DNA of 64,000 bases from a virus: the IMG/VR virus record IMGVR_UViG_3300023720_000218, one strand, 5' to 3'. Shown piece after piece: positions 1,957 through 56,492 of this stretch. Position 1 is the first letter of the stretch. Each line of letters opens with the position of its first letter. The position numbers and the translations under genes are program-made. The notes beneath the pieces were generated by a model. The model worked only from the letters and a program-made list of their open reading frames with translations, was not told the origin of the DNA and ran no database searches.

Positions 1957-3150
1957 TTACATAGTCACAGTAGAAATGAACATATACTGCGGCATTCTCG
2001 GCACACACATTTGGGCGGCTTCACTTTCAATATAGATTGAATGTGTTTCAGGGTTGGCTCTCTGTGTCAGTTTCAAACGTCCACCGTCATAAGAAGCAAC
2101 CTTGTTTGCCTCATAACCCAAAGTCAAAGGCTCCACACCTTGAATAGTACCGATCTGACCTACCGGTATAAAGGCAATATTGGTGGCCTTGAAGTTCTCC
2201 ACTTGTTCAGTGATAAGATCAGGTTGTCCGTCCGCATCCTTACCGGGCTTGTCAACAAAAGCATAGCTGTCACGTGGCACGATTTCATCTACCTTAACCA
2301 GTTTCTTGAAAATGGCTTTCAGGCGGTCTTCATCTTCATTCTGTGCATTGGCAATAACCGTACTATCATCCGTCACAGTCGGATAGAGGGAATGGCCGAT
2401 ACGTTTAAGAACCGCGGTATGAGTCATTAAATCATCCCACAAGTCCTGCGCCAGCTCCATCCTGATCTTACCCAAATAATGATATTTGCGGCGAATCTCT
2501 TTCACTCTGTTCTTTATATCCATAATCGGATCAGAGGCAGAGCCTTGATTTGCCGGAATATGTTCATCCTTAGTCCACCAACGGCTTGTGCCGGCCAATA
2601 CCTGGTAATGGTTTTCAGGGATATTAAAGTCAATAGTGATACCCTTCAAACCACGTGGGTTGTTATCAGTATCAATAGTGAACTTACCCGTGGAAACAAT
2701 TCTCATTCGCTGGTGAGTAAGCGCATTGTAGTACGATCCGATAAGACCGTCAGCACTTTCATCAAGCAAGCCCAAGAACACATTCTGCATCTCTTCCGTC
2801 AATGCGGACATGCCTACCCGTTGCAACAGCTGTAATTGTTGTCTCACAGTCACACGGTTCAAACGGTAGAACTTCTTTTGAGTCGGGATATTACCCGTCC
2901 TTCCTTCGAGTTCTCCCAATGCAGCTTCATAACCCGGACTTTCCGGATCAACGTAAGCTGGCAGCGTTTTCACGCCGAGGCTCGTAATAAGCTGGGAGAA
3001 AGTATAATCCAACTTGGTTGCTTCAAATTCAAAACCATCAATTTGAAGTAGGTCATACTTCTCCTTGTAACGGTCAATAAATTCTTGCCAAGTGTCCCCA
3101 CCAAGCCCATACTCGATAACCTTGTACAAATCAATAGGAAGTGTATTCAT
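1957..3150 (-). CDS. putative major capsid protein
   Basis: 397-aa ORF directly downstream of a coiled-coil scaffold-like gene. The size and position are typical of HK97-fold major capsid proteins. No motif was verified. Confidence 0.45.
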   Translation of the reverse strand: MNTLPIDLYKVIEYGLGGDTWQEFIDRYKEKYDLLQIDGFEFEATKLDYTFSQLITSLGVKTLPAYVDPESPGYEAALGELEGRTGNIPTQKKFYRLNRVTVRQQLQLLQRVGMSALTEEMQNVFLGLLDESADGLIGSYYNALTHQRMRIVSTGKFTIDTDNNPRGLKGITIDFNIPENHYQVLAGTSRWWTKDEHIPANQGSASDPIMDIKNRVKEIRRKYHYLGKIRMELAQDLWDDLMTHTAVLKRIGHSLYPTVTDDSTVIANAQNEDEDRLKAIFKKLVKVDEIVPRDSYAFVDKPGKDADGQPDLITEQVENFKATNIAFIPVGQIGTIQGVEPLTLGYEANKVASYDGGRLKLTQRANPETHSIYIESEAAQMCVPRMPQYMFISTVTM

Positions 3151-3187
3151 ACAATTGTCGTGTTTTAAATGTTATTTTCAAATTCTT

Positions 3188-3595
3188 TTACTGCACCCAT
3201 ACAATTTGAGGAAGTGTAGTAATCTTTTGCAGGATAGCGACCACTTCTTCGTCAAACATGTACTGATAAATCTCTCCGGCATAGACTACTGTCCCACTGG
3301 CCTTTGTGTTACCACTGGCTACAAGAATATCTTCTTGCAAATAACCATTAATGCCAAGAGTGGTAATATCTGATTCAGCCGCCTTGATCTGTGCGTCCGT
3401 GTAAGCGGTGAATGTCTTACCTGAAAGATCAAACTTCACAGCTGTACCGGCAGGAATTTTGCCAACTGCAACCCAATCGGAAATGTTGCTCACCATACCA
3501 CCGCCTGGATAACGGTGACGGATTTCACGCCACACTTTACGGGCATGTCCGTATTTCACGGTGTTCACATCAAACGTGTTACCCATTGTTCCCAT
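3188..3595 (-). CDS. hypothetical head protein (decoration or minor capsid?)
   Basis: 135-aa ORF between the scaffold and capsid genes. Confidence 0.3.
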   Translation of the reverse strand: MGTMGNTFDVNTVKYGHARKVWREIRHRYPGGGMVSNISDWVAVGKIPAGTAVKFDLSGKTFTAYTDAQIKAAESDITTLGINGYLQEDILVASGNTKASGTVVYAGEIYQYMFDEEVVAILQKITTLPQIVWVQ

Positions 3596-3622: not shown

Positions 3623-4246
3623 TCAATTCTTCTTCCAGCCTTCCTTCTTGCCTTTACGTTCAAAGTATCTGCTGGCTGCATTGTGTTGTGTTCCACCTGA
3701 ACCGTCAGAAGTTCTTGGGGCGGTGCCATAACCCCTGCACGCCTTATATTCTGCATCATATTTTGGCAGAAATTCAGTAACCAGTTCATCCACAGTTTTC
3801 TTGGTATCGAAAATTACTCCCTGCAAAGTCTTGCCCAATACGTAATCATCATTAGCTTGCTTGGCTTTCATTGCAGCCGTAACCTTCTTTAGCAGGTCAG
3901 CTTGAACCTTTTTGCTGTCTTCTGCATCTAAACGTGCTTCCAGTTCTTTCAGTTTCTTCTCCAGTTCATCATCGTTTTTCGGTGGTGCCGGTGGAGTTGG
4001 AGGTGTCGGGGGAGTCGGTTGGGGCTTATAGTTTTTCTTAAAGTCCTCAACTTTGGTTGCGACATCATGGTTGTACTGTCCTTGCATCTCTTTCAGAAAA
4101 TCCACAGCCTTGTTCCAATAAGCCTCGTCAGGCTCCGAACCTTCGGCCACGGGATTAAGTTCTACATACTTCTGTAATGTCTGCGGTGAAAAACTGGTTT
4201 CTCCAAGTTTCTCGCTTAATGTGGATAAGATTTTTTCTTGTTCCAT
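3623..4246 (-). CDS. putative scaffolding protein
   Basis: Lys/Glu-rich predicted coiled coil (…ELEKKLKELEARLDAEDSKK…) with a PTPPTPPTPPAPP linker, located just upstream of the capsid gene. The start is taken as MEQEK (ATG at 4246-4244) rather than the upstream in-frame ATG. Confidence 0.4.
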   Translation of the reverse strand: MEQEKILSTLSEKLGETSFSPQTLQKYVELNPVAEGSEPDEAYWNKAVDFLKEMQGQYNHDVATKVEDFKKNYKPQPTPPTPPTPPAPPKNDDELEKKLKELEARLDAEDSKKVQADLLKKVTAAMKAKQANDDYVLGKTLQGVIFDTKKTVDELVTEFLPKYDAEYKACRGYGTAPRTSDGSGGTQHNAASRYFERKGKKEGWKKN

Positions 4247-35933: not shown

Positions 35934-36483
35934 AGAAGCTGTTCTCAACACTCCTAACCTACCACTCTCCGTTATAAGAAAAGAAATCACATTGGCTGGC
36001 GCAAGAGCCATACTGGTAATTGCGATTAACGAGCTTGTGTCTTTTTTCAATGTTGGAAAAACGATGAATGATGTTCAAGTGGCACTTACCGCTGATCTAA
36101 TAATAGACAGATTCTATTATCTCAAATTGGAGGAAATCAAATTATGTTTCCGTAATGCTATGGCTTCCGGTAAGATTTACGATAGACTGGACGGTAATAT
36201 CATTCTCGGCTGGTTAAATGAATACGATGCACAGCGTGATGAAATTGTTTCTTCTCTTTCAATTAATGAAGCCCATGAACAAAATAATAACAGCACTGGA
36301 ATGTTCTACGGAGAATATATCAAACATCTAACTGAAAGATCGGAAAATGGAGATGAAGAGGCCAAAGAATTATTGGAATCCCATCAATCATTCATACAAA
36401 GGATGAAATCAAATGATAAAGAAGCCGCTTTCAAAAAATGGAAAGAAGAATATTATGGAAGAACTAAGAGACAAACTACTTGA
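35800..36483 (+). CDS. hypothetical protein (start uncertain; overlaps the preceding ORF)
   Basis: 227-aa ORF. Confidence 0.3.
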   Translation: MILTSMGNNLIQVNSNLPATEKKALKDLLTLQAEYYKGLHVSSIKEAVLNTPNLPLSVIRKEITLAGARAILVIAINELVSFFNVGKTMNDVQVALTADLIIDRFYYLKLEEIKLCFRNAMASGKIYDRLDGNIILGWLNEYDAQRDEIVSSLSINEAHEQNNNSTGMFYGEYIKHLTERSENGDEEAKELLESHQSFIQRMKSNDKEAAFKKWKEEYYGRTKRQTT

Positions 36484-37165
36484 CTGGGCGAAACAATTTG
36501 AAACACCTGATTTTATAAAAGATGATCCTATATTTTTTCCACATAAGTACAATGATAAAAAGGACATAGAAATCAGTGCTTTTCTTACTTCATGGATAGC
36601 TTTCGGGAATCGCAAACTGATAATGCAGCAAGCAGAAATTTTGGATAATCTAATGGGTAATTCTCCTTATGCCTTCATTATGAACAAAGTATGGGAACAA
36701 TACAAAGAAAATACAAATACCTTCTACCGTATGTTCACCTACCATGACTTCTTCTGCATTTGCCAGCGGTTGTACAACATATATCAGGAATGGGATGATT
36801 TGGAAGTATTTTATGAGGGTTACAACAATGTTATCCGTGAAATACAAACAGATTTTGGTGGCGTAAAAGGTATTCCAAAATTGGAGCGTGATTCTCCATG
36901 CAAGCGTATTTGTCTGTTTCTACGGTGGGTAGTACGAAAATCGCCGGTGGATTTAGGTATTTGGAATATTATTCACCCGACAGAATTATACATACCATTG
37001 GATGCACATGTTGCAAAAATGGCACACCAGCTTGGGATAACAACACGCAAAACAGAGGACTGGAAAATGGTTCAACAAGTAACCAATTACATGAAAACAA
37101 TTTTCCCGGATGATCCGTGCCGGGGAGATTTTGCATTATTCGGATATAGTATTAACAATAAATAA
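36413..37165 (+). CDS. hypothetical protein
   Basis: 250-aa ORF. No motif recognised with confidence. Confidence 0.35.
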   Translation: MIKKPLSKNGKKNIMEELRDKLLDWAKQFETPDFIKDDPIFFPHKYNDKKDIEISAFLTSWIAFGNRKLIMQQAEILDNLMGNSPYAFIMNKVWEQYKENTNTFYRMFTYHDFFCICQRLYNIYQEWDDLEVFYEGYNNVIREIQTDFGGVKGIPKLERDSPCKRICLFLRWVVRKSPVDLGIWNIIHPTELYIPLDAHVAKMAHQLGITTRKTEDWKMVQQVTNYMKTIFPDDPCRGDFALFGYSINNK

Positions 37166-37173
37166 TTTACATT

Positions 37174-37758
37174 ATGTCAGAACTTAAAATCACACAAGAA
37201 AAGGTAACAGCCGCTTTTAGTGAAGCAAACGACTGTCCTAAAGCAATTAGTATTCTAACAGCCCTATTCGGAAAGCAAAAGCCGGATTATACAGATTATC
37301 ACAATATTAAAACCTACGAAGATGCTTGTGAAGCAATAGGTGTAAAACCTATTGTTCGCCTACTTGTTGAGGATGAAGACGGACACAAAGAAGAAGTGGC
37401 TGATATTGCACACCTCGCCTACATCAAACTATGCACAATTGCTCGTGCATTGAACAACGATCCTGATTTTCCACGATTTACTAAAGATGAATACCGTTAT
37501 ACGCCGTGGTTTTATCTTTATAATCAGAAAGAAATTGATGAAATGGACGAAGAGGATCGTAATCAGCTGGTTCTTTGGGGCGGTGGTGCGTCTGACGGTG
37601 CGTCTTGCGGCCTCGCTTGTGCGCACTCGTGTAACGCTTGGTCGAACCCGACTGCGTATCTCGGCTCTCGCCTTGCTGTAAAATCAAGTGAAATCGCAAT
37701 TTACTTTGGAGAACAATTCAAAGAATTGTGGAAAGACTTTCTGATTGGAAAAAAGTAA
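37174..37758 (+). CDS. remote DGR target protein (C-terminal variable region)
   Basis: C-terminal …LVLWGGGASDGASCGLACAHSCNAWSNPTAYLGSRLA… is encoded by VR2 (37565-37676). VR2 matches the template repeat except at template adenines. Confidence 0.6.
   Translation: MSELKITQEKVTAAFSEANDCPKAISILTALFGKQKPDYTDYHNIKTYEDACEAIGVKPIVRLLVEDEDGHKEEVADIAHLAYIKLCTIARALNNDPDFPRFTKDEYRYTPWFYLYNQKEIDEMDEEDRNQLVLWGGGASDGASCGLACAHSCNAWSNPTAYLGSRLAVKSSEIAIYFGEQFKELWKDFLIGKK
37565..37676 (+). repeat. DGR variable repeat 2 (VR2)
   Basis: Its reverse complement aligns to the TR (53899-54006) over about 110 nt. There are about 17 mismatches at TR-adenine positions and 1 at a non-A position. The 3' end GGCTCTCGCCTTGC is shared with VR1 (IMH-like) and differs from the TR's …GCCATAC. 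Confidence 0.7.
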
Positions 37759-37770
37759 TCACACTGGGGA

Positions 37771-37794
37771 GGCCGCATCAAAGCGGCCTTTTCC
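37771..37794 (+). terminator. rho-independent terminator
   Basis: GGCCGC-ATCAAA-GCGGCC followed by TTTTCC, directly after the VR2-bearing gene. Confidence 0.5.
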
Positions 37795-37992
37795 ATACCT
37801 TTTAAATCTATGACTCCAAAAGAATTTTTCGACAAAGTGGTGGAAATGCGCCGTTGCCAAAAAGAATATTTAAAAAATAAGAGACAGATAGATTTACGAA
37901 TAAGTAAACAAATTGAGCGTGAAGTAGATGAAGAAATTGAACGTGTTCAAAAAATCCTTCACGACAAACAGAATCCGCAACTCTTTTAGACT

Positions 37993-38409
37993 ATGGTTAA
38001 TATGAAAATCCTTGACCTGCCATTAAAAGCAAAATGGTATGAAATGATCGAATCCGGAAATAAGAAAGAAGAATACAGAGAGATCAAGAAATACTGGATC
38101 GGAAGATTAGCAAAATGTGGAGGTCGCAATTCCTATGAAAAGACAGGTTTCTATTGTAAGAAAGGTATTTGTTTTTCTTGTATTACACGTGGAAACGGCT
38201 TTCACCCCAAAGAATACACTCATGTTCGCTTCCGTTTTGGCTACACCAAACGGACAATGCTTTTTGAACTTGAATCTATAACCATCGGAGTTGGTAACAC
38301 CAATTGGGGAGCACCGGATAACGAATGTGTATTTATACTTAAACTGGGAAAATGTATCAAAAAAAATGAAAGTAAGGACTCAACAGAATTTCAACCGAAA
38401 AACTCGTGA
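37993..38409 (+). CDS. hypothetical protein (possible ASCH/PUA-like fold)
   Basis: 138 aa. The N-terminal pattern LPLKAKWYEMIESGNKKEEYREI is reminiscent of ASCH domains; this is weak. Confidence 0.25.
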   Translation: MVNMKILDLPLKAKWYEMIESGNKKEEYREIKKYWIGRLAKCGGRNSYEKTGFYCKKGICFSCITRGNGFHPKEYTHVRFRFGYTKRTMLFELESITIGVGNTNWGAPDNECVFILKLGKCIKKNESKDSTEFQPKNS

Positions 38410-38622
38410 AACAGTATTCGGTATCAGCATCATGCCTGACGGTGGCAGAAGATATTGTAAATACCCAATAGGCCACCAAGAATACAAAGACTATACCCAA
38501 GCACACCAAGCTATGAAAGATGTACAAAAGATATTGGATAATGGAGGCCGATTAGTGTATTCTCCCAAAGGTAGTGCCGGGATTAATAAAAATGAATATG
38601 TAAAAATTGAAATGACATAAAA

Positions 38623-51652: not shown

Positions 51653-52048
51653 TTACTTCAATTTTGCTAATACTTCTTTTGCGATCTCCTTAGCCTTGAT
51701 ACGATAACTCTGATAATCAGTGTATTCTTTCAGATATTCGGCACGCTTACCTTCGTCAAGTTCCGAAGCCATATCACGTGCCATTTCCAAGTTGGCGAAA
51801 ATGGCATCACGTTTATTCGCATCATAACGTTCCATGATAATGGCACTTACAATACTGTCATAATCATGTTCCCCTTCAACATCCACGTTTTCACAGACAT
51901 ACTGGTCTTCAACCACCACATCTTCCGAACCGGCCTTTTGAACAGCTTCTCTTCTCTCAAAGTCGAAGTAAATGCGTAGCAACGCACCTTCAACTACAAA
52001 TTCAATACCAGTCGGCAGTTCTCCTACAAGAGTTCCATAACTTTTCAT
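51653..52048 (-). CDS. hypothetical acidic protein
   Basis: 131 aa. It is not Avd-like (acidic, no basic helical bundle pattern). Confidence 0.3.
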   Translation of the reverse strand: MKSYGTLVGELPTGIEFVVEGALLRIYFDFERREAVQKAGSEDVVVEDQYVCENVDVEGEHDYDSIVSAIIMERYDANKRDAIFANLEMARDMASELDEGKRAEYLKEYTDYQSYRIKAKEIAKEVLAKLK

Positions 52049-52069
52049 AAATTACCTCCATTTTTATAA

Positions 52070-53613
52070 TTATTCTTCAAAATAATAAGCACTCTTCCCG
52101 TCACCTAACGAACGCCGCTTGACAATCACATTTTCCACTGGAAAAATCTTCTGACCGTTATTCTCCGCTTCGCGAGCCTGATCCAACACATCTTTCAGAT
52201 TGTAACAGTTCGTTATGAATTTGCTACGTTGTCCGTTCTGTTCAAAAAGAACACAATATCTACCTTCACCTTGCTTTGTCTTCACATTCGTTTCAAAGTC
52301 CACCACTGTTATAGGGACATTGAGAATATCCATCAATCTTGTCTCTTTTACATCGAAGAACTTCTTTCCGTCCTTTGTTCTACCACTCTGTTTGATACCT
52401 TTATCTGCAAAACTCATATCATTATTTGTTATTGTTCTCCATAAATTCTTACAATCTCCCCACTTACACCAGCCCCAGTATGAAGCTCGTATCTCGCGGT
52501 TACGTTTCCGGCTTTTTATTCGTTTCACCTTTCGGGCAAAGTTCTTTTTCATATTTTTACGCATCCGAACATTATCTTTCGTGAAGCAATAGCCCAAAAA
52601 GTTAATCCTTCTTCCTCTTACTACGTTTTCGCTTTCTATGCTTTTTGTTCCCATTTTTTGTTTCTGTTCCTATCGGAGCAATACAACTGTTTGCTTTAAC
52701 TACCAACCCAACTTTTGCACTTTCCCGTTCATACGCACGAATAAGAAACAACGCTTCGGCCTTAGAACGAGCCAGCATAACATTATCATCGCAATATCTA
52801 TGCAGGCATTTGACACGATATTTCTCCTTCATTGTATGATCTATCCGGCTTGCCGCAAAATTCCCGATAGGTTGGCTTGTAAATGCTCCAATCGGAACAC
52901 CTCTTCTTCCGTTCAACTTCATTCTCCAATACGTCAACTAACTCTGTTCCGCTGTCATACGATAAAACAGCTATCTCGATCAATTTAATAAATCGTTCAT
53001 CTTTGAATTTCCTTCTCAATGCAGCAACAATAAGCTCATGAAGAATACTTTGATAGAACTTTTTGAAATCAGTCTTTACGAACCATTTGTATTCCGGGTA
53101 CCGGTGAAGAAAACGTTTCATTCTCCTTACTCCAAAATGTAATCCCTTTCCCTTGATACACGCACTTGTATCATAAATCAAATTTCTATAAACATCTTCT
53201 TCAATCACCCTCATAATTGCATGGTGCAATATACGCCACGGGAAATATTTCTGTTTGACAATATCTCGAACCTTTCCTGCATCACTTTTTACTCTCATTA
53301 CGCTATAATCCGGTGCCGGAAAATCCAATGTCAGGATCATCAACTGCAAAGCTCGGAGGTCTTCTTCCGGGTGTAGATTATGCCGCCTGATAAAGCGGTT
53401 TTTCTTAACCTTCCCATCTTGTGCTTCTTTGTCCGCTTCACGTAAATTATTTATCTCTGCTATACGTTCAAGAATATACCCGGCTCTTTTAGATTTCTTT
53501 CCACCGTTTGCTTCTATCCGTTTATTGTCAGCCTCTATCCTTTCCGCTATAATTCTATCAATTTCATTATGCGATAGACTCTTCCAATCAATATCACTTC
53601 TTCCAATATTCAC
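52070..53613 (-). CDS. DGR-type reverse transcriptase, reading frame interrupted twice in this sequence (three ORF pieces)
   Basis: Piece 1 (53613-52798) has RT motif 2 (FVKTDFKKFYQSI). Piece 2 (52937-52602) has the DGR-specific GVPIGAFTSQPIGNFAAS (I-G-x-x-x-S-Q in place of QGxxxSP) and YCDD. Piece 3 (52654-52070) has INFLGYCF (thumb). The second break sits at an A6 run (T6 at 52654-52659 on the plus strand); one A fewer restores …IAPIGTETKMGTKSIESENVVRGRRINFLGY…. Confidence 0.7.
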
Positions 53614-53898
53614 TGCTGCTTTGTTTTAAAATTTACACCATACTTCCAATTTTGTCTTGTTCAGACTATTTTAATTATTCCGATAACTGCAAGCTGTTTT
53701 TACTTGCTTGAATAATTCGCCCGGAGCTTTCGAGAACCAACCTACTAACACCGCTTGTTGCCTTTCGCAAATTGGGCAACCTTTCCGCATTCTTGATTTT
53801 CTGACATCGTAACCAATTGATTACTACGTTGCAACGATATAAATCCTGCAAGGTCATGGCTCGGAGAACTCGCAGATTACTCTACGATAAATAAGTAT

Positions 53899-54006
53899 GG
53901 CGAGAGCCGATATTCGCATTCGAGTTCGACCAATCGTTATTCGAGTTCGCATAAGCGAGGCCGCAATTCGCACCGTTATTCGCATTACCGCCCCAAAGAA
54001 CCAGCT
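53899..54006 (-). repeat. DGR template repeat (TR)
   Basis: Read on the minus strand, it carries 12 AAY (Asn) codons: …GGC GGT AAT GCG AAT AAC GGT GCG AAT TGC … AAC TCG AAT AAC GAT TGG TCG AAC TCG AAT GCG AAT ATC GGC TCT CGC CAT AC. It is non-coding and lies between the target gene and the RT. Confidence 0.75.
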
Positions 54007-54129
54007 CTTGTTCCCCTCTGCCAACCGTCCACGCCTTTCGGCTTTCGTCCCGTTATCCGTTGCCGTAAAACGAGAAGGTGGACGGATTTTAATTAATTGA
54101 AATTCAAAGAACTAATATTTCAAAATCTA

Positions 54130-55449
54130 TTATGCAGCCATCAAAGATGCACCGCTAACAAATGTTAAATTCCCAAAATACGCAAGGCGAGAGCCGATAG
54201 TCGCAGTCGAGTGCGACCAATCGTTATGCGAGCGCGCATAAGCGAGGCCGCAATACGCACCGTCATACGCATCACCGCCCCAAAGAACCAGCTGCCCAGT
54301 AGTGTTTGCCCATGAATAATCAGCCCAATAAGAAGTGCTGTTTCCACCAATCTTTTTCGGGAAAATATCAAAATGCTCCCCAAGAATTATTTCCTGCACT
54401 TGACCGGAAACTGTCTGCCGGGTAGCTTGTCTGTATTCACCATTTGGATGCGCAGCTAATTCAGCAGTAGTCGGTAAACGGTTTCCTTTGTAAATGAAAA
54501 TTTCCGTTCCACTTTGAGCACTATTGTTGGAACTACCGCAAAATACTCCTTGCAGAAATTCCCACTGCCACCCATAAGGATCTTCTATACCCATCATGTT
54601 CACCCGTGAACAATCCACTCCAGTATTACTTCCATTCACCACAGAAATAGCTATTTTACCCCAATTGTCACCGAGACTCTTTGTTGCGCCAGTTTGCAAT
54701 GCTGCCGCAGCAGCCCACAAGTCTTTACTGGAGCTACCACCCACACCATAACCAAGTTTGGCTTGAATATTGGTATCTCCGTACTGGGACAGCCCCAACA
54801 TCATAATAAGCTTTCTCTGATCGTAATCGGTCAGTCCCCATTCCTTACCGTTCACTTGTGCAGCATTCCAAAATGCGTTGATTGTCTTGCTGCCTGCCGG
54901 TGCAACTCCTGAACGTGAAACAAGTGCGCTACCTGACATGGAGCCTTTGTATGCACCGATACAGTTATACATTCCACCATTTGCCCCACCAATAAACTCA
55001 CCGCCAATAGGTAGCATCGAGAGCCATAAGACTGGTACACCACTCACACTGTCAGTCTGTACACGATAATACAAACGTGGCCCTATCCACATCACATGCC
55101 CTTTGGTTTCATCCACCGCAGTACCATCAGCAAACACCGCACTATTGGTAGGGGACATTTTAGCAGCCCTTCCATCATTCGTTACGAGATAACGGCCACA
55201 ATACAACTTGTATTCTGTCCATGCGGCTGTATTACCTATCACACCATAGTTCGTGCTACTTTGGGTTGATTGTTTGATTGGAATCCCCCAAGCCACCTGC
55301 CTCAACATTTGTTCGTCACCATTATTAATAGCATTCATGAAGTTTTCCACGGTAATGCGTCTGACACTACCACCAACTTCCACCAATACTGTATTGGAAC
55401 GCAGAATGGAGGTCACCAATGTTTCATTTCCTAATCCTTTAGTTGCCAT
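54130..55449 (-). CDS. DGR target: tail-fibre / receptor-binding-like protein with a C-terminal variable region
   Basis: 439-aa ORF in the tail block. The C-terminus …LVLWGGDAYDGAYCGLAYARSHNDWSHSTATIGSRLAYFGNLTFVSGASLMAA is encoded by VR1. Confidence 0.7.
   Translation of the reverse strand: MATKGLGNETLVTSILRSNTVLVEVGGSVRRITVENFMNAINNGDEQMLRQVAWGIPIKQSTQSSTNYGVIGNTAAWTEYKLYCGRYLVTNDGRAAKMSPTNSAVFADGTAVDETKGHVMWIGPRLYYRVQTDSVSGVPVLWLSMLPIGGEFIGGANGGMYNCIGAYKGSMSGSALVSRSGVAPAGSKTINAFWNAAQVNGKEWGLTDYDQRKLIMMLGLSQYGDTNIQAKLGYGVGGSSSKDLWAAAAALQTGATKSLGDNWGKIAISVVNGSNTGVDCSRVNMMGIEDPYGWQWEFLQGVFCGSSNNSAQSGTEIFIYKGNRLPTTAELAAHPNGEYRQATRQTVSGQVQEIILGEHFDIFPKKIGGNSTSYWADYSWANTTGQLVLWGGDAYDGAYCGLAYARSHNDWSHSTATIGSRLAYFGNLTFVSGASLMAA
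54182..54293 (-). repeat. DGR variable repeat 1 (VR1)
   Basis: It matches the TR over about 110 nt with 10 mismatches, all at positions that are A on the TR coding (minus) strand. It ends 17 codons before the stop with the GC-rich GGCTCTCGCCTTGCG (IMH-like). Confidence 0.75.
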
Positions 55450-55469
55450 AATATTATTTTGTTTTTATG

Positions 55470-56492
55470 TTAATTAAAATGACATTCTGCCAAAACATCA
55501 ACATCATATTGAGTCCCGTTTCTGTCAGTTTCCGTTGTTGTTACAGATATAGAATTTGTTGTAGAATGTTTCAAACTCTTCCAGTTTTCCTTATCCATCA
55601 CATCCATAGTCCACGATGCGGAAGTAGGAGTATAAGTTGACCCCGTAGTCATATTTACAATCTTGGCACTTACTGTAACGGGTTGTCCGGTATCAACCTC
55701 TTTGTTGGAAGAAGTTATATAACATACAATTTGAAATTCATCTGCCGTATCAATGATACGTACCCCGGCACGTGCTATCGGTTGTGAAGCACTTGAAGAC
55801 TGATAAACTTCTGCTATGAATAACTGGGTACCGTCCACATCACCACGGGTAACAGTTACACTTTTCTGTCCGTTCTTATCAGTCCAAGCCGCCGTGTCCT
55901 TATACCATTTTATATAGTAATCGGTAATGGCATTGGCACCGGCATACAGCTTGGTAGTCAGAGTACAACTTGTTACTTTGCTTGTTAACTGTTCGGTACT
56001 TGCAAGAATAGCAAGATAGTAAGAGCTGGCTCCCATATTCTGAATGGCAATAGGCAGTTCCCCGGTCAAATTATACTCAACACCTGCCGTAGAAGCGACA
56101 CATGAATAAGTCAATGTATCTCCTGCAATATTCGTTTTGCTTGCCAAGTTTCCGACAATTTTAATGGCACCGGTACTGGTATTCAAAGAGAATTTGCCCG
56201 TACTGTCTTTTTTCCAACCTCCACTTTCCGCACCGTTAAAATTTAAAGCCACTCCATTGTAAGCCCAACTATGACCAGACAAACTGACCGCCAACCCACG
56301 TGCCGAAGTTACTTTGGGTGTCCGTACCGGCTGATTCGCAGCTATACTCCAATCAGGAGAGACAGCCCCACTTTCTTCATCTACGGCCTGAAACAATGGA
56401 ATGCCATTATTTTCAAAAGTCAGCATCAGGCTGTCATTGGAACGAAGACGTTTAATCGTGATGCTATTTTGGGCACTATAATTTTCTGCCAT
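55470..56492 (-). CDS. hypothetical tail/baseplate protein
   Basis: 340 aa, Thr/Ser/Gly-rich, in the tail block. Confidence 0.35.
   Translation of the reverse strand: MAENYSAQNSITIKRLRSNDSLMLTFENNGIPLFQAVDEESGAVSPDWSIAANQPVRTPKVTSARGLAVSLSGHSWAYNGVALNFNGAESGGWKKDSTGKFSLNTSTGAIKIVGNLASKTNIAGDTLTYSCVASTAGVEYNLTGELPIAIQNMGASSYYLAILASTEQLTSKVTSCTLTTKLYAGANAITDYYIKWYKDTAAWTDKNGQKSVTVTRGDVDGTQLFIAEVYQSSSASQPIARAGVRIIDTADEFQIVCYITSSNKEVDTGQPVTVSAKIVNMTTGSTYTPTSASWTMDVMDKENWKSLKHSTTNSISVTTTETDRNGTQYDVDVLAECHFN

Follow-up and report, generated by a model that had tools for sequence, protein, structure and literature searches.

Adenine-specific variation at the remote second target of the LoVEphage DGR

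Introduction

Work on phage DGRs has so far centered on receptor-binding proteins and host range. In the DGR of Bordetella phage BPP-1, which is said to go back to Liu 2002 and Doulatov 2004, a variable repeat (VR) in the gene of the tail-fiber target Mtd is paired with a template (TR), mutagenesis is adenine-specific and uses AAY codons, and the VR ends in a GC-rich IMH that differs from the TR copy. The TR/VR pair, the mutagenesis, the codon use and the boundary element, as well as an RT of the same clade, are shared by the phage considered here. Unlike BPP-1, which has one adjacent target, a single-ORF RT, Avd and a downstream hairpin/cruciform, this phage (LoVEphage) has a second target, inverted and at a distance of 16 kb, and an RT spread over three frames, and neither Avd nor a hairpin beyond chance was found.

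DGRs in which one TR serves several VRs, some of them distant or on the other strand, have been described in Legionella, Treponema and cyanobacteria (Wu et al., 2018, PMC5758913) and for the tentaclins (PMC10743442). Their targets are surface, lipoprotein or signaling proteins and, in phages, virion proteins with C-lectin and Ig domains, whereas the second target of LoVEphage is a small early phage protein with no recognizable domain. Intracellular DGR targets of bacterial conflict systems (Kaur et al., 2020; Vallota-Eastman et al., 2020, PMC7517822) would be comparable in that they carry a diversified ligand-binding module within the cell and are linked to defense or signaling genes; these are, however, large multidomain proteins (STAND NTPases, kinases), and the LoVEphage protein is phage-encoded, ~190 aa long and without an effector domain.

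The phage itself has been described more than once. Van Espen et al. (2021, PMC8525569), who coined the name LoVEphage, reported only an RT adjoining the tail collar fiber gene. For Quimbyvirus (“Quimbyviridae”), Benler et al. (2021, Microbiome 9:78, PMC8008677) described a DGR with an RT in three overlapping frames and two variable repeats. One follows the tail-fiber genes; the other is at a distance from the structural module, on the opposite strand, in a gene whose product was presumed to be non-structural. This second target is set among counter-defense genes, and its neighbors include a mutY-like nuclease, a tRNA ligase and methyltransferases. The same authors reported adenine-specific substitutions at 22 sites among genomes of >95% ANI, stated a C-type-lectin assignment for the target, inferred a role of the second target in phage-host conflict from its gene neighborhood, and noted contig assemblies broken by the DGR repeats (PMC8008677). 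More recently, three cultured LoVEphage isolates were listed with two variable regions each and Avd given as “NA” (Dahlman et al., 2025, Table S3, PMC12629997), the second VRs being near counter-defense genes.

The remote second DGR target singled out by a first-pass annotation of the DNA analyzed here is real and very probably active, yet it has been in the literature since 2021: the finding is correct but not new, since Benler et al. (2021, PMC8008677) had already published this target. Beyond these papers, we provide per-site statistics over 32 genomes and document concerted TR-to-VR evolution in related species. We also describe how large the target family, phrog_11581, is, which architecture its members conserve, and its recurrent DGR targeting, which extends to a phage with a single-ORF RT (contig L165, where a seemingly decayed, non-templated paralogue is also found). 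Finally, we report a three-frame RT layout kept to ~50% identity in ~70 viral contigs, and a C-lectin assignment without sequence or profile support outside the templated stretch.

Results

The window, i.e., the whole stretch of 64,000 nucleotides analyzed (IMG/VR record IMGVR_UViG_3300023720_000218), is 99.0% identical to LoVEphage MW660583.1 over 36400-38500 and 99.6% over 51900-55600, and five further complete genomes from Australian and Chinese isolate collections are 97-99% identical to the region. This places the window within the LoVEphage/Quimbyvirus species (≥95% nucleotide identity to the reference genome). Judged by these identities, Bacteroides phage LoVEphage and “Quimbyvirus” are one phage, the same as that of the window, because both papers align theirs to a prophage of B. 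dorei CP011531.1 that is ~95% identical to the phages of both groups (PMC8525569; PMC8008677). The DGR of the window is accordingly the Quimbyvirus element, with nothing different in kind (PMC8008677; Table 1).

Table 1. Coordinates of the DGR features and of the second target gene in the window.
Feature	Position	Strand	Details
Gene of the 194-aa VR2 target protein	37174..37758	+	QVQ57199.1 in MW660583; phrog_11581, full-length match
VR2	37565-37676	+	Ungapped match to TR, inside ORF 37174..37758 (+)
Mutable adenine-templated sites of VR2	37585-37660	+	23 sites, 13 codons
Sole non-adenine VR2-TR difference	37648	+	T->C, Ser159Pro; window only, T in 31/32 genomes
GC-rich 3′ boundary (IMH-like) of VR2	37663-37676	+	GGCTCTCGCCTTGC
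Intrinsic-terminator-like hairpin	37766..37793	+	11 pairs, 7 G-C, then T-run; z = -3.9
DGR RT	52070..53613	-	ORFs 52798..53613, 52602..52937, 52070..52654, three successive frames
TR	53895-54006	-	Adenine-rich at 23 sites; 3′ end GGCTCTCGCCATAC (IMH*-like)
VR1	54182-54293	-	C-terminus of 439-aa tail protein gene 54130..55449 (-), phrog_5302 “tail protein”

A repeat search returned three related copies of ~113 nt, of which two are direct repeats on the minus strand (53889-54006 and 54176-54293) and one is inverted (37564-37677). The inverted copy pairs with 53894-54006 through 37565-37677 (113 nt, 84% complementary) and with 54182-54294 through 37564-37676 (88% complementary). When aligned on their coding strands, TR, VR1 and VR2 are homologous without gaps from AGCTGGTTC to GGCTCTCGCC, a direct observation of the repeat relationship, and this three-way alignment, which the first-pass annotation had suggested, shows the copy at 53895-54006 to be the TR.

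Most of what had been read from the letters alone was recovered in this way. VR2 had been described as a reverse-complement match to the full length of TR with about 17 differences at TR adenines and one elsewhere, and both the repeat search and the ungapped alignment bear this out: 15 TR-adenine differences fall in the 106-nt core and two more A-site differences in the 3′ boundary (CCATAC in TR, CCTTGC in both VRs), for a total of 17, next to the single non-adenine difference. The IMH-like 3′ end proposed to be common to VR1 and VR2 is likewise present, with GGCTCTCGCCTTGC ending every VR1 and VR2 and GGCTCTCGCCATAC every TR, related species included. VR2 also encodes, as had been claimed, the C-terminal part of a 194-aa plus-strand protein sitting among non-structural genes, namely residues 131-168, after which 26 conserved residues follow. 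All 23 templated adenines stand at codon position 1 or 2 (10 AAY codons plus TAT, GAT and ATC), and this AAY-type placement at 13 codons makes ~3.7e13 peptides possible without any stop codon.

One further position at the edge of the repeat is of note. At 37565 (codon 131, CAG or CGG), Gln is encoded in three genomes and Arg in four; the adenine of this position is also found in the TR, two bases upstream of CTGG, and the position may be a 24th templated site or else an ordinary SNP.

Variation at VR2 was evaluated across 32 genes (from 7 complete genomes and 25 IMG/VR contigs). Six different VR2 sequences occur among the seven complete genomes, in a 194-aa protein that is otherwise nearly unchanged, and 28 distinct ones among the 32 independent genomes and contigs; no difference in the TR (118 nt) exists among the seven complete genomes, and 24 of 26 additional contigs carry it unchanged (100% identity). 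Columns that differ from TR in at least one of the seven genomes include 22 of the 23 TR adenines vs. 1 of 83 non-A positions (Fisher p = 1.7e-20), and, counting individual cells over the 32 genes, 415 of 736 A-site cells differ from TR vs. 9 of 2656 non-A cells, which excludes chance as the source of the A-site bias. Every one of the 23 TR-adenine columns varies among the 32 copies, and mean column entropy is 1.70 bits for TR-A columns, 0.019 for non-A VR columns and 0.038 for the rest of the gene. At the protein level, the thirteen variable residues lie within 138-163, and the protein is almost invariant outside of these across the 32 genomes. Adenine-specific variation at the population level and invariance of the scaffold are thus both directly observed, and the differences between genomes suggest that diversification would also be ongoing inside one population.

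Related species (70-80% protein identity) are informative in another way, as their TR has itself diverged at non-A positions and both VRs carry exactly those bases. In these species each VR departs from its own TR at 11-20 positions, of which at most one is not a TR adenine, and the distinction between CCTTGC (VR) and CCATAC (TR) at the boundary is kept. This concerted evolution of TR and VRs, which can be read directly from the alignments, is direct evidence of a continuing transfer of information from TR to both targets. The two targets nonetheless change independently, as indicated by genomes OY725593 and OY731444, which have VR2 in common and different VR1 sequences. Taken together, VR2 is very probably an active, trans-targeted variable repeat of this DGR cassette.

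Hypervariation is also visible in databases, where two 90%-identity clusters of the 194-aa protein, P0014 and P0011, contain 37,449 and 14,127 distinct members, respectively. Such counts are an unusually direct database signature of hypervariation, and could be used as a screen for DGR targets.

In the core of this window VR2 has 15 mismatches to TR and VR1 10, and the first-pass annotation had taken VR2 to be the more diverged copy, hence one that was older or had gone through more rounds of mutagenesis. This does not hold across genomes, with adenine mismatches to TR averaging 13.0 for VR2 (range 9-23, n = 32) and 14.9 for VR1 (sd 3.0, range 6-20, n = 22), and the gap seen in this window is sampling. 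The accepted DGR model has the entire repeat replaced at every homing event, so that the number of mismatches would not measure age or rounds in any case.

Two minor departures from the adenine rule were seen. Position 37659 (VR index 92, the T in GCG-AAT-ATC) lies between templated adenines, and 5 of the 32 VR2 copies have another base there, C in three and G in two, every other non-A column being changed at most once. It may be a hot spot at which the RT makes non-adenine errors at low frequency. In addition, two of the 26 TR copies (IMG/VR contigs among L046-L123) depart from the consensus at adenine sites (e.g., A->T, A->T, A->G), and are either TR/VR assembly chimeras or cases of rare mutagenesis of the template itself.

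The cassette is ordered on the minus strand as the tail-protein target with VR1, then TR, then RT. RVT_1 matches are found in the RT ORFs, PIGAFTSQ and YCDD motifs are present, and the joined ORFs are colinear with the single-ORF DGR RT of hankyphage (residues 2-173, 182-260 and 260-433 in frames +1, +2 and +3); the BPP-1 DGR RT is also colinear (tblastn match). Reading through takes two +1 frame changes, one ahead of R-G-V-P-I-G..SQ and one ahead of I-N-F-L-G-Y. The seven genomes show no difference at either junction stretch, every genome has the three-frame split, and ~70 of 78 IMG/VR loci (L047-L122, found with RT piece 3) have the same layout of frames n, n+1 and n+2, to ~50% amino-acid identity. 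Candidate mechanisms for expression of this RT are a ribosomal +1 shift, transcript slippage or an RT of three subunits. As for the junctions, L113, L117 and L121 have no ATG in the next frame ahead of the homology at junction 1, and RT piece 2 has a conserved, very basic tail. In most loci, the stop codon of this piece falls within the I-D/N codons that belong to the next-frame FLGY motif.

An Avd-like accessory gene was not found in the cassette, where a 60-aa ORF (53675-53857) has no Pfam match; a divergent small accessory protein is possible. Similarly, the 106 nt that follow each VR gave, when folded, nothing beyond chance for a hairpin of the BPP-1 type (z = -0.3 for VR1 and -0.8 for VR2). 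Both Avd and the downstream hairpin matter in the BPP-1 model system, and a downstream hairpin or cruciform is not universal among DGRs.

The 194-aa protein is annotated in MW660583 as a hypothetical protein with no HHsearch matches. Pfam, NCBIfam and PADLOC searches gave no match, neither did known defense and anti-defense models, and its only family match is phrog_11581 (unknown function). Inspection of the sequence revealed no signal peptide and no transmembrane or hydrophobic segment, and no similarity to structural proteins was found. Compared to the tail target, similarity is limited to residues 131-168, i.e., the templated stretch (BLASTP), and an hhalign comparison of the two target families aligned only 43 VR columns. 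FGE-sulfatase, DUF1566 and lectin-family Pfam matches were obtained for 0 of 70 family members, and PDB sequence searches with the target protein came back empty; no fold assignment was obtained. By these sequence and profile comparisons, a C-lectin assignment of the 194-aa protein is not supported outside the templated stretch.

The family is large, with at least 884 clusters at 50% identity for E ≤ 1e-3 (305 for E ≤ 1e-10) and, in a profile search, at least 7,989 clusters at 90% identity, 0 of them with a Pfam domain. Members are ~155-250 aa long and comprise a conserved N-terminal helical part, a K-T-[FY]-E-D-A motif, an A-Y-x-K-L-x-I-I-x-A-L-N-E-G-W segment followed by a variable stretch, and a conserved C-terminus (G-S-R-L-A-x-K..L-A-x-Y-x-G-K-Q-F-I-x-L-W). 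Within remote subfamilies (38-42% identity), the proteins are near-identical, and all of their differences fall in the stretch that corresponds to VR2.

A templating TR is present in the relatives of 70-80% identity and also for one member of 40% identity (L165). The TR of this member lies 9 kb away on the opposite strand, has 12 of 12 mismatches at its adenines, and adjoins a tail-type VR1 and a single-ORF RT. Around the remote family members, a TR was found within 10 kb in 1 of 56 loci (L165); the remaining 55 probably have a more distant TR, as in the window, or are not targets. A degenerate DNA pattern built for P0282-type VR/TR pairs had no match in viral contigs. L165 also carries, at ~2900-3450 and 4107-4173, a paralogue whose VR-equivalent stretch has indels and no match to the TR; this looks like a decayed or fixed copy, and there may be a third fragment.

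In the window, a DUF2400/TIGR02757 gene (36413-37165) ends 8 nt upstream of the 194-aa gene, and a terminator-like hairpin follows directly after the stop codon (Table 1), so that the 194-aa gene seems to end a transcription unit begun upstream, DUF2400 gene included. Cytosine-5 methyltransferase, ASCH, PAPS-reductase/DndC-like and radical-SAM genes are found nearby. Elsewhere, relatives lie in early regions of Bacteroidota prophages, beside integrase, RecT and YqaJ, and also beside an SMC-like ATPase, an Apyc1-like metallo-beta-lactamase (MBL) protein and methyltransferases. A scan for sigma-70 promoters returned 17 sites vs. 21 expected, and such a scan is uninformative for a Bacteroides phage.

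Discussion

Following the accepted DGR model, we infer how VR2 would be rewritten, as well as the cellular location and function of its protein. The TR would be transcribed and its RNA copied to cDNA by the RT encoded just downstream, with misincorporation opposite template adenines. The mutated cDNA would then replace the homologous stretch of any target ending in a matching GC-rich boundary element. As this cDNA would act in trans, the 16 kb distance and the strand of the target would be irrelevant, and the presence of GGCTCTCGCCTTGC in both VRs vs. GGCTCTCGCCATAC in TR would keep the flow of information one-way.

Active diversification has to be weighed against several other explanations for VR2. 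The repeat could be a decayed relic or stray copy that is no longer diversified, an alternative raised by the first-pass annotation and in line with the one non-A mismatch of the window and with a site remote from the cassette. This non-A change is however private to the window, the ORF is intact and its scaffold under strong conservation, and VR2 exists in 28 distinct versions; with changes confined to TR-A sites and VR2 following the non-A changes of TR in related species, we consider the relic ruled out and give it next to no credence. VR2 might instead vary through gene conversion by VR1 or recombination with it, or be a chimera that assembly has made of the repeats, given that VR1, VR2 and TR are ~85-90% identical and that chimeric database proteins exist (P0049; P0004, P0005, P0016). 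On the comparative data we reject these readings too, as extremely improbable: many A sites differ between VR1 and VR2 of the same genome, VR2 but not VR1 is common to two genomes, VR2 has unique flanks that do not change, the complete genomes obtained by three laboratories agree, and VR1 as a donor would not explain A-only differences from TR in both copies. A DGR RT normally acts on the RNA of its own TR alone, which counts against the idea that the LoVEphage RT is dead from its two frameshifts and that both VRs are diversified by an RT in trans, e.g., from a co-resident hankyphage DGR. The split of the RT in every genome and the lysogenization of the same hosts by hankyphage (PMC8008677) would fit such help in trans, but it is very unlikely considering that the TR lies directly beside this RT, and that the three-frame layout is kept to ~50% amino-acid identity in ~70 viral contigs with all three pieces open and conserved, which points to selection for function.

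As for what the diversified protein does, its location in the early DNA-modification region, the lack of export signals and the family context, the only evidence considered here, suggest an intracellular binder of variable specificity, used for counter-defense or competitor exclusion in phage-host conflict. We regard this reading as plausible, with the balance near even or slightly against it, and it agrees with the conclusion drawn from the neighborhood by Benler et al. (PMC8008677). The 194-aa protein could instead be a virion-associated or exported binder, whether as an additional component for receptor binding or adhesion or as an internal protein that is ejected, given that almost all characterized phage DGR targets are receptor-binding proteins, that phage DGRs with two surface-protein targets have been described (tentaclins, PMC10743442), and that use of the same TR as the tail protein makes the variable peptide frame common to both. 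Such a role appears unlikely for a protein that has no signal peptide or membrane segment by inspection and no similarity to structural proteins, and whose family gene is always among early, replication, recombination or DNA-modification genes.

Should the protein indeed be an intracellular binder, a DGR rewriting a small cytoplasmic early protein among DNA-modification and counter-defense genes suggests that phages also diversify an intracellular binding function. It is tempting to extend this to the family as a whole, although such an extension is rather doubtful at this stage: phrog_11581 would be a very large unnamed family of small early phage proteins that stay inside the cell, that phages of different RT architectures have recruited as DGR targets time and again, and that serve as reprogrammable binders (e.g., inhibitors re-tuned against variable host defense proteins) on a scaffold that is not a recognizable C-type lectin. 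If true, phrog_11581 would represent a phage-side adaptive counter-defense module, which is something other than tropism switching. In the human gut, LoVEphage/Quimbyvirus ranks with the most prevalent temperate phages, and cultured, inducible lysogens exist, which makes the question of the second target directly testable.

Two side observations concern the family data. Some database proteins combine the 194-aa protein with other pieces: in P0049 its N-terminus is joined to a translation of the TR, P0004, P0005 and P0016 contain duplicated VR pieces, and P0113 and P0115 are joined to neighboring or unrelated genes, all of which are most likely assembly artefacts at a hypervariable repeat. Finally, contig L042, which carries a remote family member, contains a motif of ~55-90 nt (…ATTTGG…TACCTTTGCA…) in 7-11 intergenic copies, which looks like a repeated promoter or regulatory element of the Bacteroidota type.
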